DNA of 64,000 bases from an uncultured bacterium (GTDB lineage Bacteria > Fidelibacterota > Marinisomatia > Marinisomatales > TCS56). Under the pieces are notes generated by a model that was given only the letters and a program-made list of their open reading frames with translations, was not told the DNA's origin and did no database searches. How positions within the stretch are numbered: position 1 is the first letter of the stretch; every line of letters starts with the position of its first letter. Of this stretch, positions 2,424 through 39,628 are shown one piece after another. Made by a program: the position numbers and the translations under genes. The stretch covers positions 28,733 through 92,732 of the forward strand of contig CAYPJE010000007.1 of assembly GCA_964410945.1 (NCBI GenBank). The letters run 5' to 3'.

Positions 2424-2870
2424 ATGTCAACTTTCACCAGGATATATTATCATATCGTATTTTCTACTAAATATCGTGATCCATGTCTGACGATTGAAAA
2501 CAGGGAAAAACTATTTAAATATATCTGGGGGATAATTAATAAAAAGGATTGCCATTTATATCGCATCAATGGAGTGGAGGATCATATTCACATATTGACA
2601 GACTTGAAATCAAATATTTCCCTTGCCGATTTTGTTAAAGATATCAAAGTCGCCTCTTCAATCTGGATAAAAAATCAGAACATATTTCCTGCTTTTGAGG
2701 GCTGGCAGGAAGGCTATGCCGCTTTCACATGCGGCAGTAATGATAAAGATATGATAATCAATTATATCAAAAACCAGGAGGTTCATCACCGAAAACGAAC
2801 ATATTTGGAGGAGGTGGAAAGATTCCTGGAAGAGAATGAAATTGATTATGATAGCAGGTATCTGGTTTGA
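2424..2870 (+). CDS. IS200/IS605-type Y1 (HUH) transposase / RAYT-like protein
   Basis: N-terminal YYHIVFSTKYR block, HUH motif in EDHIHILTD, and a C-terminal Tyr helix NYIKNQEVHH. Length 148 aa. The gene and flanks are clearly more AT-rich than the neighbours. Confidence 0.85.
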   Translation: MSTFTRIYYHIVFSTKYRDPCLTIENREKLFKYIWGIINKKDCHLYRINGVEDHIHILTDLKSNISLADFVKDIKVASSIWIKNQNIFPAFEGWQEGYAAFTCGSNDKDMIINYIKNQEVHHRKRTYLEEVERFLEENEIDYDSRYLV

Positions 2871-8409: not shown

Positions 8410-8837
8410 ATATCTCATTAAACGGCCAACAACTGGCAATCATCGTTGCCCCGGGTGAAACCCTGTTGGAAGTCCTGCGGGACCAGGGCTATTTCGGGGC
8501 CAAACACGGTTGTGATCATGGTGAGTGCGGGGCCTGCACGGTGCTGATAGATGATAAGGCTGTCAATTCCTGCCTGGTCCTGGCTCATAGTGCGGATGGG
8601 AAAAAAGTGGAAACGATTGAGGGATTGGGCGATCATGAGCAACTACATCCGTTGCAGGAGAAATTCATTGCCAGCGGAGCGATCCAATGCGGTTTCTGTA
8701 CGCCGGCCATGATCCTGGCATTGGAGGCCCTGAGTCGGGAAACAACGGAACCAACTGAAGCACAGGTGAGGGATGCGCTGTCGGGGATCCTGTGTCGTTG
8801 CACCGGCTATGTGAAACCGGTGGAGGCGGCCTTATGA
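8400..8837 (+). CDS. [2Fe-2S]-binding small subunit of molybdenum hydroxylase (copy 2)
   Basis: CDHGECGACTV, QCGFCTPA and CRCTGY motifs. Length 145 aa. ATGA overlap with the large-subunit start. Confidence 0.9.
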   Translation: MQINISLNGQQLAIIVAPGETLLEVLRDQGYFGAKHGCDHGECGACTVLIDDKAVNSCLVLAHSADGKKVETIEGLGDHEQLHPLQEKFIASGAIQCGFCTPAMILALEALSRETTEPTEAQVRDALSGILCRCTGYVKPVEAAL

Positions 8838-11119
8838 AAGTGATCGGAAAACCAACCGCCCGTGTGGACGGACCGGCCTTGTCGCGGGGTAAGCCTGTTT
8901 TTGCCGATGATATGTACCTGCCGGGAACACTGTACCTGAAAATTCTGCACAGCCCGGTAGCTCATGCCCGGATCAAATCAATCGATGCCGGCCGGGCCCT
9001 GGCACGTCATGGTGTGGTGGCGGTTTACACTCATGAGGATTTTCCGGTCCATTATTATACTACCGCCGGGCAAGGTTATCCTGAGCCGGGCCCCCGGGAT
9101 TACCGGATACTGGACGATACCGTTCGTTATGTGGGTGACCGGGTGGCGCTGATAGCAGCCGAATCACTGGAGCTTGCCGAGGCCGCTCTTAATGAAATTG
9201 AAGTGGAATACGAGGAATTACCATCCCTCCTGGATGCAGGTAAAGCGCGTTCCTCCGAAATTGTTATCCATCCGGAACAGGGGAAGACCGGAATCCATGA
9301 CGTTGAAAAAAACATAGCCGCCCATATCGAAGCGGAAGTTGGTGATGTAGAAAAGGCTTTCGAGGAATTGCCCCACGTTTTCCATGGGGAATACAGCACA
9401 CCGTTTGTCCAGCAGGCCCATATCGAACCCCATATCAGTCTGAGCTGGCTGGATGATGACGGCCGGATCGTGATCCGTACCGCTACCCAGGTGCCTTTTC
9501 ATGTCCGGCGGATCGTGGCTGAAGTGCTGGATATCCCGGTCCGGAAGATTCGGGTCATTAAACCGCGGATCGGTGGCGGCTTCGGCGGTAAACAGGAAAT
9601 ATTGAATGAAGAACTGGTGGCGGCGGTGACGCTGAAAACCGGTCGTCCGGCCCGGATCGAATATACCCGGGAAGAAGAATTTTATGCCGCCCGGACCCGC
9701 CATCCCCAGATCACCAAATTCAGGATCGGGGTGGATAATGAGTGTCGGGTCCAGGCCATCGACCTGGATATTCTGGAGAATACGGGTGCTTATGGCGCCC
9801 ATTCACTCACTGTGATGTCAGTGACGGCCCAGAAAGCATTATCGCTTTATCGGGCGCCCAACCTGCGGGTTTACGGTGATGCGGTTTATACCAACCTGCC
9901 GATCGCCGGGGCTTATCGCGGCTACGGCGCACCCCAGGGATTTTTCGGTTTGGAATCACTAATGGATGAAATTGCTGCTGAATTGGGGATCGATCCGGTG
10001 GAATTCCGGCATAAGAACTATGTGCAGGTGGATGATGATTTGCCCATCGCCGCCATCCTGGGCGAAGGCCGGGAGGGCTTCCCGGCCAAGGTGCGCTCCA
10101 CGGGAATGAAAGACTGCCTGGAGGAAGGCAGAACACTGATCGACTGGGAAGGCATTCGCAGTACTCCCAGGACGGGTGTGATCCGCCGTGGTGTCGGTGT
10201 GGCTGTGGTGGGACAGGGCTCCGGTATTCCCGGCATTGACATGGGATCAGTATTTATCAAGATGAATGAAGACGCCAGCTTTAACCTGTTGGTGGGTGCC
10301 ACCGATCTGGGAACTGGTTCCGATACGGTCCTGGCCCAGATCGCCGCCGAGGAAATCGGCGTGCCGGTAGAGCAGATCCTGGTCTATTCCAGTGACACGG
10401 ACCGTACACCGTTCGACACCGGCGCCTATGCTTCCAGCACGACCTACATCAGCGGTAACGCTGTAAAAAAGGCTGCCGCTGATGTGAAACGCCAAATCCT
10501 TGAACTGGGTAAAAAATTGTTGGGCGCCGGTGAGGCGGAAATTCGAGACCAGCAAGTTGTAGCCGCCGATGGAAGCAGTATTTCGTTCAAGGATATTTGC
10601 ATCAAAACTTTCTATACCGAAGAGCAGACCCAGATCATGTCCACGGCCAGTCATATGAGTTTCGATTCGCCTTCACCGTATAATGCCACTTTCGCCGATG
10701 TTTCTGTGGATACGGAAACCGGCCTGGTAACGGTGAACAAGGTTGTATCGGTGACCGATATCGGACAGGTAATCAATCCCCAGATGGCGGAAGGCCAGAC
10801 CGAAGGGGGGATACCCCAGGCCCTTGGTATGGCCCTGACCGAATTTATGGTCTTTGATGACCGGGGCCGGCCGATGAATACTGATTTCAATGATTATCAT
10901 ATTTACACTGCCATCGATATGCCGGAAATTGTGACCAGGTTTGTCCATACCAGCGAACCCACCGGCCCGTTTGGCGCCAAGGCGGCGGCGGAGATACCGA
11001 TTAACGGTCCCGCTCCGGCGGTGGTGAATGCGATCCATAATGCCTGCGGAGTGCGCATCAGGGAGCTGCCGGTAACGCCGGGGAAAATCCTTAACGGATT
11101 GGTGAGTAGTGAGAAGTAG
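8834..11119 (+). CDS. molybdopterin-binding large subunit of xanthine dehydrogenase-family hydroxylase
   Basis: MKVIGKPTARVDGPALSRGKPVFADD N-terminus, GGGFGGK, and GAYRGYGAPQG motifs. I chose the ATG at 8834 (ATGA coupling) over the listed 8792 extension. Length 761 aa. Confidence 0.9.
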   Translation: MKVIGKPTARVDGPALSRGKPVFADDMYLPGTLYLKILHSPVAHARIKSIDAGRALARHGVVAVYTHEDFPVHYYTTAGQGYPEPGPRDYRILDDTVRYVGDRVALIAAESLELAEAALNEIEVEYEELPSLLDAGKARSSEIVIHPEQGKTGIHDVEKNIAAHIEAEVGDVEKAFEELPHVFHGEYSTPFVQQAHIEPHISLSWLDDDGRIVIRTATQVPFHVRRIVAEVLDIPVRKIRVIKPRIGGGFGGKQEILNEELVAAVTLKTGRPARIEYTREEEFYAARTRHPQITKFRIGVDNECRVQAIDLDILENTGAYGAHSLTVMSVTAQKALSLYRAPNLRVYGDAVYTNLPIAGAYRGYGAPQGFFGLESLMDEIAAELGIDPVEFRHKNYVQVDDDLPIAAILGEGREGFPAKVRSTGMKDCLEEGRTLIDWEGIRSTPRTGVIRRGVGVAVVGQGSGIPGIDMGSVFIKMNEDASFNLLVGATDLGTGSDTVLAQIAAEEIGVPVEQILVYSSDTDRTPFDTGAYASSTTYISGNAVKKAAADVKRQILELGKKLLGAGEAEIRDQQVVAADGSSISFKDICIKTFYTEEQTQIMSTASHMSFDSPSPYNATFADVSVDTETGLVTVNKVVSVTDIGQVINPQMAEGQTEGGIPQALGMALTEFMVFDDRGRPMNTDFNDYHIYTAIDMPEIVTRFVHTSEPTGPFGAKAAAEIPINGPAPAVVNAIHNACGVRIRELPVTPGKILNGLVSSEK

Positions 11120-11176
11120 TTGGTGAGAAGTCAGCCGGCGGCTGACGGTGAGCCTTATTAATTCCTATCTTGATCT

Positions 11177-11247
11177 GTAGGGACAACACAGTGTGTTGTC
11201 CGAAATATGGAAAATAAAACCCGGACAAGTCGCTGACTTGTCCCTAC
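11177..11247. repeat. REPIN-like inverted REP doublet, copy 1
   Basis: GTAGGGACAA-cacagtgtg-TTGTCCG, a 18-nt A-rich linker, then CCGGACAA-gtcgctgac-TTGTCCCTAC. On the minus strand the right arm reads GTAGGGACAAGTCAGCGACTTGTCCGG. Confidence 0.8.
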
Positions 11248-11401
11248 GAATTGCCGGTGGTATGATTTAAAAATGACGGATGGAATGTGTAGGCCTGCAA
11301 TGGGCAAACCTTTAAGTAGTGCTAACTCAGGTTGGAATTAGTAATTAGTGAGAAGTCAGCCGGCGGCTGGCGGTGAGCTATATTAATTCCTATCTTGAAC
11401 T

Positions 11402-11470
11402 GTAGGGACAACACAGTGTGTTGTCCGAAAAAAGGAAAAACCCCCGGACAAGTCGCTGACCTGTCCCTGC
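11402..11470. repeat. REPIN-like inverted REP doublet, copy 2 (slightly decayed)
   Basis: Same architecture as copy 1. The right arm carries substitutions (gacCtgtccctGc). Confidence 0.75.
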
Positions 11471-11677
11471 GAATTGCTGGTGGTAACATATTAAAAGGCA
11501 AATGGAATTTATTGTGCCTGTAATGGCAAATCTGAAATTAGTGGCAACACAGGATTTAATCTTTTGCAAATTAGTAGGCTATCAGCCTTCGGCTGGCGGT
11601 GAGAATGATGTGTGTGGGTGACAATTCGGTAATTCATTATACCAACATGGCTGTTTACTTTTATCCATACCGGGTTT

Positions 11678-11748
11678 GTAGGGACAACACAGTGTGTTGT
11701 CCGTGAAATGTATAAAACACCCCGGACAAGTCACTGACTTGTCCCTAC
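11678..11748. repeat. REPIN-like inverted REP doublet, copy 3
   Basis: GTAGGGACAACACAGTGTGTTGTCCG ... CCGGACAAGTCACTGACTTGTCCCTAC, followed by the same GAATTGCCGGTGGTATGATTTAAAAATGACGGATGGAAT tail as copy 1. Confidence 0.8.
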
Positions 11749-11830
11749 GAATTGCCGGTGGTATGATTTAAAAATGACGGATGGAATTGCCGTGTGGGTT
11801 AGGGGATTGGCAGGTCGAAGGGGCCGGCTT

Positions 11831-12226
11831 GTCCGTACCATCTGTGTGTAATGCCCGTTCCACAGCGATTGACCGTCCGTTCCGGGGGGTGGGAACGGGC
11901 ATTCCGATGGTACAGACCGCGTGTTCTCAGGGATGAGAACGTGCATTCCAATGCCACAGACCGTGTGTTCCCGGGGGCTCGACCGCACGTTCCGGGGGTA
12001 TAGACTACACGGTCGATAGCATGCGAATGCATGCTCGGACCGACCCGAGCGTATGTTCTGCCCCCTCCAAGTGTGTACTAGTGACCACCCGAGTGTGTGC
12101 TCTGACCATTCCGAGTGCATGCTCAAGACCATCCGAGTGCACACTCGGCACCCATCGATCGCCCACCCGAACCCCTGCGAGTACACATACGCGTGCCAAT
12201 ATAGTGCCAGGCACATCCGATCGATT
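11831..12226. repeat. GC-rich array of 18 consecutive degenerate 22-bp units (array A)
   Basis: The stretch parses without any indel into 22-mers. Examples: gggcattccgatggtacagacc / gcgtgttctcagggatgagaac / gtgcattccaatgccacagacc / gtgtgttcccgggggctcgacc ... gtgtactagtgaccacccgagt / gtgtgctctgaccattccgagt / gcatgctcaagaccatccgagt. 15 of 18 units start with G plus an alternating purine-pyrimidine run. Confidence 0.85.
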
Positions 12227-12246: not shown

Positions 12247-12317
12247 GTAGGGACAACACAGTGTGTTGTCCGAAATATGGAAAATAAAACCCGGACAAAT
12301 CACTGACTTGTCCCTAC
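12247..12317. repeat. REPIN-like inverted REP doublet, copy 4
   Basis: The core differs from copy 1 at only 2 positions (ggacaaAtcActgac). It is preceded by TTAATTCC, as are copies 1 and 2. Confidence 0.8.
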
Positions 12318-36709: not shown

Positions 36710-36736
36710 TTAGCACTCTAAACTAAGGAGTGCTAA
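36710..36736 (+). promoter_or_regulatory. CIRCE operator (HrcA binding site) upstream of groES-groEL
   Basis: Perfect TTAGCACTC-N9-GAGTGCTAA inverted repeat, 115 nt upstream of the groES ATG. Confidence 0.92.
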
Positions 36737-38825: not shown

Positions 38826-39360
38826 CCGCCTTCGCAGAAGACCACGCCTGCGTGCCGAAAACAGCTACGTCGTGCAGGCACGGGCTCGCCCGTGGGGCTC
38901 CATCACAGAACAAGGATTAACGAATGATGAATTATGAAGTTTTGGCAATGAGAGTCGGGATGGAAAATTCTAAAATCGATATTCCCTGTTGGTTGTTCTG
39001 AAATTGAAAGAGGTTTGTAAAAAGGATACCTCCACCCGTGCACGACACGCCTGTGCATCGAAGTTGAAATGTAGATGTACCGTGCCCCTACGATGATTTA
39101 TGATTTGAGATTCTCGATGTATTTTGACTATTAGACCAGAATGAAAAGTATCAATATTATTACGAGCGCAGCGAAGCAATCTTTCCGGTCGTTGCCAGGG
39201 GAAGTAAATATCTCCATCTATGTTCCATTACTGTAACTACGATGGATAAAGCTTTGTTGTTCAATTTATCCACTCAGCACGAGGACATGGGGGCTCTGTC
39301 AATTGAGAGATTTCCACTTCGGGGACAAGTTCGCGAGACCAAGCGAAAGTGCGGTCTGTA

Positions 39361-39602
39361 CTGCTAAAATGACCGTTTGGGCCAAGTGAAATGGTCGATT
39401 GGGCTAAGTATAACGACCGTTTGGGTCAGCTGGAACGGTCGTTTGAGTGTGGTAAAAAGCACAATTGACCTGGCTAAAACGCCCTTTTGGGTATGGTAAA
39501 ACGGACGATTGGGTATGGTAAAATGCACGATTGGGTATGGTAAAATGCACGATTGGGTCAGCTAAAACGGTCGTTTGAGCGCGGTAAAACGTACGGTCCG
39601 GC
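39361..39602. repeat. array of 11 consecutive 22-bp tandem units (array B)
   Basis: ctgctaaaatgaccgtttgggc / caagtgaaatggtcgattgggc / ... / atggtaaaacggacgattgggt / atggtaaaatgcacgattgggt (x2, identical) / cagctaaaacggtcgtttgagc / gcggtaaaacgtacggtccggc. Exact register with no indels. Confidence 0.85.
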
Positions 39603-39628
39603 TGGTTGAGACACCGGAAAAAGACAGA

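Follow-up and report, generated by a model that had tools for sequence, protein, structure and literature searches.

The iterons of the plasmids F, R6K, RK2, and pPS10 recur at ~22 bp, and those of the lambda origin are palindromic. Among plasmid centromeres, sopC of F consists of 12 repeats of 43 bp with an inverted repeat in each, parC of R1 consists of 10 repeats of 11 bp, and parC of pSK41 is built of 20-bp repeats. Here, we analyzed a 64,000-nucleotide stretch of contig CAYPJE010000007.1 from an uncultured bacterium of the FCB group (the window), in which a preliminary description had reported a row of degenerate 22-bp units between two REPIN copies. We refer to this element as array 1 and to a second element 27 kb away, absent from the preliminary description, as array 2. 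Judged by their sequence, both are tandem arrays, non-coding and lineage-specific, whose 22-bp units have dyad symmetry. Like iterons, they are made of head-to-tail repeats ~22 bp apart with a conserved core and a spacer of fixed length, and their palindromic units recall the lambda type. Like plasmid centromeres, they form long rows of phased, often dyad-symmetric sites, on which in those systems a dimeric protein assembles as a filament or superhelix; array 1 further recalls sopC in its 44-bp super-period, each half of which holds one palindrome.

Formal autocorrelation of positions 11831–12226 against 500 shuffles confirmed the 22- and 44-bp periods that had been proposed. Identity was 0.519 at lag 22 (z = 11.7) and 0.551 at lag 44 (z = 13.2), with a 95th percentile of the best z per shuffle of 3.4; it was 0.479, 0.451, and 0.455 at lags 66, 88, and 110, and lags 21 and 23 stayed at background (~0.26). 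Each multiple of 22 up to lag 330 exceeded all of its neighbors at ±1 to ±3, indicating that the register of array 1 never slips. Adjacent units are merely ~52% identical, which does not fit the recently expanded satellite suggested earlier, and Tandem Repeats Finder recovered three fragments only. The reported extent of 18 units holds for 15 of them, which form a solid part at 11853–12182 divided into two sub-blocks, a and b; units 1, 17, and 18 are weak and barely recognizable. Listing the units bore out their described features: 15 of 18 begin with G, GA(A/C)C closes units 2–7 and GAG(T/C) most of units 10–16, units 4 and 6 are identical at 18 of 22 positions, and units 12–14 form a subfamily with 13–15 matches in 22. 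Similarity between units falls with distance, with the 44-bp super-period superimposed; in sub-block a, the alternation of A-type and B-type units gives rise to this super-period. As described, array 1 is richer in GC (58.8%) than the window (48.6%), has REPIN copies 3 and 4 on its two sides, and occupies the gap where a xanthine dehydrogenase-like gene and lspA converge. The observation is real, better defined than at first, and part of a small local family.

We examined how conservation is distributed within the 22-bp unit of array 1. Position A20 is invariant, G1, T7, C8, and G19 are conserved in at least 90% of units, and columns 9–18 are near background, so that the near-invariant columns read GA-N2-G-N5-TC around a free 10-bp spacer. 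If the differences were evenly spread, 0.08 columns conserved to at least 90% would be expected, compared with the 5 of 22 found, and the variance among columns was reached in none of 5000 permutations. The pattern GACCGYRYRTTCC occurs five times in sub-block a and once elsewhere in the window. Hinge unit 9, between the sub-blocks, belongs to a 30-nt inverted repeat (11937–11966 with 12007–12036), the GC skew reverses between sub-blocks a and b, and the profile of sub-block b fits that of sub-block a best as its reverse complement (p = 0.006). Smith-Waterman comparison of the two sub-blocks gave null-level scores in both orientations, and the possibility that sub-block b is an inverted copy of sub-block a is suggestive only.

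The units of array 1 are symmetric about two dyad axes, at unit positions 2.5 and 13.5, which join 4.5 and 3.9 of 8 possible Watson-Crick pairs compared with ~2 elsewhere. The axes thus recur every 11 bp; the site reads GA-N8-TC about a center of alternating purines and pyrimidines, and a free 10-bp stretch separates one core from the next. The local dyads of the preliminary description were found as claimed, although the palindromic nature of the units themselves had gone unremarked there. Some units consist of a tetranucleotide plus an 18-nt hairpin (e.g. CGTTCC-N8-GGAACG and GTTCTCA-GGGA-TGAGAAC). In an alignment of 15 units, the hairpin register paired 65.7% of the cells versus 15–43% when it was slid. 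As many as 78 of 500 within-column shuffles paired equally well, the covariation score was unremarkable, and many units pair at merely 2–5 of 11 positions. The symmetry of array 1 resides in the consensus and is not upheld unit by unit; such symmetry, without compensatory change, suits symmetric recognition of duplex DNA better than it suits selected hairpins. Both arrays fold somewhat better than shuffles on the two strands (z = −3.8 and −3.6 for array 1; z = −4.1 and −2.7 for array 2), as their palindromic content predicts. A consensus-level dyad, the lack of per-unit covariation, and the about equal folding of both strands argue against the highly structured RNA considered in the preliminary description.

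The length of the unit is conserved as well. Units 12 and 14 are composed of 10 nt, GACC, and 8 nt, units 10 and 13 of 9 nt, GACC, and 9 nt, and a gapped alignment of the first pair with the second matches at 19 of 23 columns versus 14 of 22 without gaps. Within a single unit, a +1 insertion is therefore offset by a −1 deletion, suggesting that unit length is constrained. The claim that the array is indel-free thus stands for the constant length of the unit and falls for its interior, and the register constraint proposed earlier is supported by the exact period across 330 bp, by this pair of indels restoring 22 bp, and by the near-invariant columns.

A sliding autocorrelation over lags of 5–99 across the 64 kb exceeded 0.46 at arrays 1 and 2 only, and only at lags 22, 44, 66, and 88. 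Applied to 1.45 Mb around groEL from 80 FCB-group genomes, the scan detected repeats of many other periods and no 22-bp array comparable to arrays 1 and 2, with one relative's locus barely at threshold at lag 22. The dyad axes of array 2 lie at unit positions 8.5 and 19.5, and 9 of its columns are conserved to at least 90% versus 3.9 expected. Its A- and T-tracts recur every 11 bp, so that the DNA may be intrinsically curved. The profiles of the two arrays are unrelated (p = 0.08 and 0.21); what they have in common is the 22-bp period and a site between convergent genes. Array 2 has a GC content of 47.5% and no REPIN nearby, which indicates that the GC-richness and REPIN bracketing of array 1, presented before as features of the element, are local accidents. 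No further arrays were found in ~10 kb of Logan sequence outside the window (~7.8 kb to the right and ~2.2 kb to the left). Taken together, the arrays display a period, a symmetry, position-specific conservation, and conservation of length.

We compared the locus with independent assemblies. The window proteins were found in one NCBI contig and in the Logan assemblies of a few sequencing runs only. In six samples, the Logan assemblies bear out the flanks together with four array 2 units, and the right-hand units at the edge of array 2 were identical in six independent assemblies. Same-species Logan contigs terminate at REPINs or inside array 2, in the latter case where exact 31-mers recur. No independent assembly among these short-read contigs contained array 1, because they break at the flanking REPINs. 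The coordinates of the arrays and of their neighbors are given in Table 1.

Table 1. Arrays 1 and 2 and neighboring features, in coordinates of the window.
Feature	Positions	Strand	Description
Array 1 as first reported	11831..12226		18 slices of 22 bp; units 1, 17, and 18 weak; autocorrelation, unit listing
Array 1, sub-block a (units 2–8)	11853..12006		Core GA(C/A)C|GYRYRTTC; central 10 bp G-rich
Array 1, hinge unit 9	12007..12028		Between sub-blocks a and b
Array 1, sub-block b (units 10–16)	12029..12182		Core GAGT|GYRYRCTC; central 10 bp C-rich
Array 2	39365..39606		11 units of 22 bp, TAAAACGnnCGnTTGGGnnnGG, each with palindrome AAACG-N2-CGTTT; between groEL (+) and nitroreductase gene (−)
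REPIN copy 1	11177..11247	+	GTAGGGACAAC...GTTGTCC / GGACAAGTC...GACTTGTCCCTAC
REPIN copy 2	11402..11470	+	
REPIN copy 3	11678..11748	+	Left neighbor of array 1
REPIN copy 4	12247..12317	+	Right neighbor of array 1
Molybdopterin (xanthine-dehydrogenase-type) subunit	8834..11119	+	Upstream convergent gene; PF01315, PF02738, PF20256
lspA, signal peptidase II, 185 aa	12430..12987	−	Downstream convergent gene; PF01252
161-aa open reading frame across array 1	11731..12216	−	Called protein in NCBI record
IS200-like Y1 transposase, RAYT candidate	2424..2870	+	PF01797, E = 1.1e-28

Genes of the neighborhood encode molybdoenzyme subunits, amidohydrolases, LspA, a glycyl-radical enzyme, GroESL, nitroreductases, cell-wall enzymes, and glycosidases; there is no tRNA or tmRNA gene in the window. 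The 161-aa open reading frame (ORF) had no Pfam match and no homologue but itself in 1.84e9 representatives or 5.8e9 clusters, and it is probably a spurious annotation. The stop codons per frame over array 1 number 3, 1, 5, 2, 0, and 2, a total of 13 versus 26.5 ± 4.1 in mononucleotide shuffles, so that there is one open frame only and not the five claimed earlier. The lack of a Pfam match or homologue for the overlapping ORF agrees with the earlier view that array 1 is not a peptide repeat or a decayed gene; a period that is not a multiple of 3 and a lag of 66 that is not favored led us to reject this class.

A perfect CIRCE operator, TTAGCACTC-TAAACTAAG-GAGTGCTAA, lies at 36710–36736 upstream of groES, indicating that the lineage uses HrcA control. 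We rejected CIRCE as the identity of the array units: the arms of sub-block b, RYRCTC-N10-GAGTGY, carry N10 compared with the N9 of CIRCE and are thus off by 1, and GCACTC-N9-GAGTGC matched no array unit within 3 mismatches. The six Logan contigs that carry groEL all stop at 38840–38900, ~70 bp past the groEL terminator; their ends differ by a few bases at most, and five end at one and the same position (...GACCACGCCTGCGTG). This shared stop suggests another genome-wide repeat family that is single-copy within the window.

Our leading but tentative explanation, at a probability of about 35%, is that each array is a chromosomal, orphan row of phased palindromic sites to which a dimeric DNA-binding protein would bind, resembling iterons or plasmid centromeres. 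Each unit would be one palindromic recognition site on duplex DNA, GA-N8-TC in array 1 and AAACG-N2-CGTTT in array 2, followed by a spacer free in sequence and fixed in length. With sites every 22 bp, approximately two helical turns, and half-site axes every 11 bp, all of them would face one side of the helix. A dimeric protein could then load cooperatively and form an uninterrupted nucleoprotein filament, much as it does on the iterons and centromeres of plasmids. We infer both the protein binding and a downstream role, which may be that of a domain boundary, titration, or insulation. Among the ideas put forward for these arrays, phased DNA binding appears to fit their anatomy best. The symmetric conserved core, the unconstrained spacer of constant length, and the absence of hairpin covariation among units agree with it, as do the exact period and its recurrence in two arrays of unrelated sequence.

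Iterons of theta-replicating plasmids and phages are direct repeats of 17–22 bp that recur at ~22 bp, and array 1 agrees with them in this respect. Unlike iterons, the arrays stand without an initiator gene, an AT-rich unwinding element, or a plasmid or phage context; they comprise 11–16 units that are far more diverged (~52% identity between neighbors) than typical iterons, strongly so outside the core, and two unrelated cores occur in one chromosome segment, between convergent housekeeping genes. No initiator gene of the Rep_3, RepA, Pi, or O type was found next to the arrays among the ORFs checked with Pfam. The architecture of a plasmid centromere is present. In contrast to centromeres, there is no parA, parM, or sopAB nearby, the setting is chromosomal, and the units are degenerate; no par or sop gene that could supply a ParR, SopB, or ribbon-helix-helix adaptor was identified in the window.

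Several points weigh against a row of protein-binding sites. Neither array is flanked by a gene for a Rep, Par, or ribbon-helix-helix protein or another obvious partner, the Pfam-assigned ORFs being ordinary. The unrelated cores of arrays 1 and 2 would need two proteins, and the arms of array 1 shift from GAA/TTC-like to GAG/CTC between the sub-blocks. Dispersed single copies of either core were absent from the window beyond one chance-level match. In IMG/VR, an identical filter of five bases over four units (loci L288–L441) returned 13, 116, 11, and 14 arrays at periods of 20, 21, 22, and 23 bp; the counts at 20, 22, and 23 indicate that a period of 22 is not generally preferred, and the excess at 21 presumably represents in-frame coding repeats of heptapeptides. 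No close relative of the host that could show conservation across species was found in any collection. The best match to GroEL among 185,579 species representatives was 79% identical and came from a metagenome-assembled genome of Candidatus Neomarinimicrobiota, the next-best LspA in a 15-billion-protein collection was 61% identical, and the REPIN 25-mer was absent from GTDB representative genomes and JGI metagenomes. No homologous locus was obtained from public data.

A broader form of the protein-binding reading is that the lineage carries a family of chromosomal phased palindrome arrays, built on a 22-bp ruler that is independent of sequence, whose filaments organize or insulate the chromosome at junctions between convergent units. 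Its members would be long rows of dimer sites spaced by exactly two helical turns, an orphan chromosomal counterpart of plasmid iterons and centromeres in which unrelated sequences share one ruler. Such filaments might serve as a domain boundary, a supercoil barrier, or a platform for titrating a regulator. We regard this extension as doubtful.

We also searched metagenome contigs with a pattern made of the five invariant bases of array 1 across four units (20 specified bases). At least 120 stretches in metagenome contigs and 11 in IMG/VR matched, and all 131 loci listed were true 22-bp tandem repeats with lag-22 identities of 0.62–1.0. Most arrays among the matches listed were near-identical (0.8–1.0, a range toward which the filter is biased) compared with the 0.52 of array 1, and several were long, with 13–36 units. 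The consensus had a dyad score of at least 8/11 in 25 of the 131 loci, compared with a few percent in random sequence by our own estimate, so that the listed arrays appear to be enriched in dyad symmetry. None of the 131 loci resembled array 1 or array 2 beyond the imposed bases, and in IMG/VR the consensus of array 2 gave single chance matches only. Tandem arrays of 20–23 bp are common in metagenomes.

Three of the matched arrays deserve description in their own right. In contig L173 (ERZ779876 NODE-8453), 18 near-identical 22-bp repeats, TCCACSAGATGTGAGAGYGYAT, occupy positions 1437–1849, and a gene with a Rep3_N domain lies ~600 bp away; it is a classical iteron array beside a Rep_3 initiator gene, and it illustrates the usual meaning of such an architecture. 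A strongly palindromic four-unit 22-bp array, TCTGCTGCAGTGGACTGTACAG, recurs in many contigs (L175, L179, L182, L184, L187, L193, L211, L241, L259, L282, L285, and others), several of which come from human-gut metagenomes; it probably represents an origin or operator conserved in a gut plasmid or phage. In a soil-type metagenome, L186 carries at 1299–1579 an array of 13 units of 22 bp with the palindrome CGTTTGCAAACG, right after a terminator-like hairpin. Its half-sites are those of array 2 with the spacers swapped; we rejected kinship with array 2, the shared 10-mer CGGTCGTTTG being at the chance level of 10-mer sharing.

A tentative alternative, nearly as probable as the row of protein-binding sites, is a hairpin satellite similar to REP or BIME elements. 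A 22-bp palindromic unit would have been amplified locally in convergent gaps that act as safe havens, through slippage, unequal exchange, or a single-stranded DNA enzyme with hairpin and site specificity, such as the RAYT. Any function, such as bidirectional termination, insulation, or protection of mRNA 3′ ends, would be incidental, and the conserved bases and fixed length would mirror the needs of amplification ("molecular drive") rather than a cellular function. Both arrays do lie in convergent gaps, where selfish or neutral repeats accumulate, and the REPIN cluster that surrounds array 1 has undergone tandem amplification of its own, in modules of ~225 bp. This cluster (11115–11790) comprises three such modules (~225–278 bp, 83–92% identical), each consisting of a CAGCCGGCGGCTG-type hairpin and a REPIN; array 2 has no REPIN nearby to match. 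The decay of similarity with distance and the 44-bp super-period are what stepwise local duplication predicts, and the abundance of 20–23-bp tandem arrays in metagenomes is in keeping with amplification.

The arrays share with REP, BIME, and REPIN elements the clustering of short palindromic units in convergent gaps and a genome with a RAYT-type transposase. The Y1 transposase gene lies 9 kb from array 1; no GTAGGGACAAC REP occurs beside it within 3 mismatches, and it may provide a context for the REPINs, with no link to the arrays shown. The 22-bp unit is about the size of the REP hairpins, which are 21-nt palindromes here, and the folding of both strands of both arrays and the units formed by a tetranucleotide and an 18-nt hairpin would suit such an origin. 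The likeness between array 1 units and the REP hairpin itself is marginal (p ~0.03–0.04 before multiple-test correction, sub-block a only). The REPINs of the window start with GTAGGG, and the units of array 1 open with GYRY, never GTAG. Unlike these elements, the units keep one register and orientation per sub-block rather than alternating, are mostly poor hairpins with no per-unit compensatory change, and are not dispersed in the window. The many dispersed copies that characterize REPs were absent from the 64 kb and the ~10 kb searched.

The arrays can also be likened to minisatellites (variable-number tandem repeats), in that they are non-coding, lineage-specific tandem repeats whose similarity decays with distance. 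Unlike minisatellites, array 1 combines a lag-22 identity of only 0.52 with an exact length and five near-invariant columns. A neutral array so diverged should lose its register and not hold 5 of 22 columns nearly invariant, and the satellite model may explain these columns and the length compensation only if the amplification machinery selects them.

A noncoding RNA of 22-nt modules, acting as a protein sponge of the CsrB, RsmZ, or CrcZ type, is an unlikely explanation. It would be transcribed from the minus strand, from ~12190 to the terminator-like arm of REPIN 3, over ~470 nt. A sigma-54-like site, TGGCAC-N5-TGGCA with 1 mismatch, lies at 12194–12209 on the minus strand and is directed into array 1; such matches number 21 in the window versus 32 expected and are thus at chance level. 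At the other end, a minus-strand terminator-like hairpin with a T-run spans 11744–11724, but such "terminators" are present in every REPIN copy. Sigma-70-like matches fall within REPINs, and the Bacteroidetes-type promoter pattern occurs nowhere in the window. Of the 7 units in sub-block a, 6 carry an in-register GGAA(C/U) on the minus strand, and ~16–18 motifs per ~400 nt is similar to the size of CsrB. Sub-block b has lost the GGA, array 2 lacks it, and an RNA motif needs no palindromic conservation. Although folding exceeds that of shuffles, there is no covariation. Array 1 shows no strand asymmetry of G:T versus A:C mismatches, and the asymmetry of array 2 is about that of its G+T-rich composition (our own estimate from the unit consensus). 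We also rejected the known RNAs: Rfam 15 gave nothing relevant at E ≤ 1 around both arrays, or at the gathering score across the whole window.

We consider it very improbable that an integrated plasmid or phage left the arrays behind as a remnant of its iteron origin or centromere. In architecture they equal iterons or sopC- and parC-type centromeres, and the 18 iterons beside a Rep_3 gene in L173 are a parallel. However, no Rep, Par, integrase, or phage gene, nor any Tas or Cas gene, was identified among the Pfam-checked ORFs of the window, and no Rep, Par, integrase, or phage gene was found in ~7.8 kb beyond its right end (Logan contig L104). A BLAST comparison with 72,556 plasmid and 50,697 phage records gave no match, and the flanking genes, core metabolism and groESL, mark a housekeeping chromosome. 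The GC skew is uniformly positive throughout the window with no switch, for which reason we rejected a replication origin or terminus.

TIGR arrays consist of 8–12-nt edge and loop repeats that alternate next to a tas gene encoding a Nop-domain protein (Faure et al. 2025, PMC12045711; TIGRFinder preprint 10.64898/2026.09.09.750476). They are organized as box C, a spacer of 9 nt (8–12), and box D, with intervals 4 bp apart and a period of 18/36 nt (PMC12045711; 10.64898/2026.09.09.750476). A guide-RNA array of this dual-repeat kind, or a miniature CRISPR-like one with 12-nt repeats, 10-nt "spacers," and a 44-nt unit, is hardly credible here. The likeness lies in the alternation of short conserved segments (8–12 nt; a conserved 12 bp and a variable 10 bp in array 1) with short variable ones, in the dual-unit super-period of 44 bp, and in the ~8 double units, within the 5–15 typical of TIGR arrays, which CRISPR finders overlook. 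We rejected TIGR since the period is 22/44 and not 18/36, there is no conserved box C/D pair, and no Nop-domain match appeared among the scanned ORFs. CRISPR arrays are defined by near-identical repeats of 23–47 bp and unique spacers of similar size, usually with cas genes. We rejected this class as well: the segments are ~12 bp conserved and 10 bp variable, the variable ones are related to one another (units 3/7/8, 4/6, and 12–14), array 2 is nearly devoid of a variable segment, and neither tas nor cas genes were identified in the window.

Scarcely believable, finally, is an assembly artefact or decayed protein-coding gene, for which the failure to recover array 1 independently and the NCBI annotation of the 161-aa ORF could be cited. 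Degenerate repeats are not something that assemblers create unless exact k-mers are reused, and up to six samples have identical flanks and an identical array 2 edge. The ORF lacks a Pfam match or homologue, and identity at lag 66 does not exceed that at lags 22 and 44.

Comparison with Rfam, with plasmid and phage records, and with the CRISPR and TIGR criteria upheld the earlier statement that no described element class matches. No described family appears to match the arrays by sequence or defining features, and their architecture is a variant of a well-known kind, either phased tandem sites or a minisatellite of palindromic units. What is unusual is the divergence of units that keep their length and core, the chromosomal orphan setting, and the presence of two unrelated arrays with one period in 64 kb. 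Arrays of this type escape Tandem Repeats Finder at default stringency, are annotated as proteins, and break short-read assemblies.

If the arrays are hairpin satellites, they would add a new layer to REP/REPIN biology, in which direct arrays of 22-bp units stand beside REPINs, and they would be a case of unit length preserved through compensating indels. If they are protein-loading platforms, a bacterial chromosome would have taken up the design of iterons and centromeres, in which the palindromic core is conserved, the spacer is free, and phasing at two turns is strict. It would have done so where convergent operons meet and with no cognate gene linked to the arrays, which would then provide a sequence handle for finding the protein.

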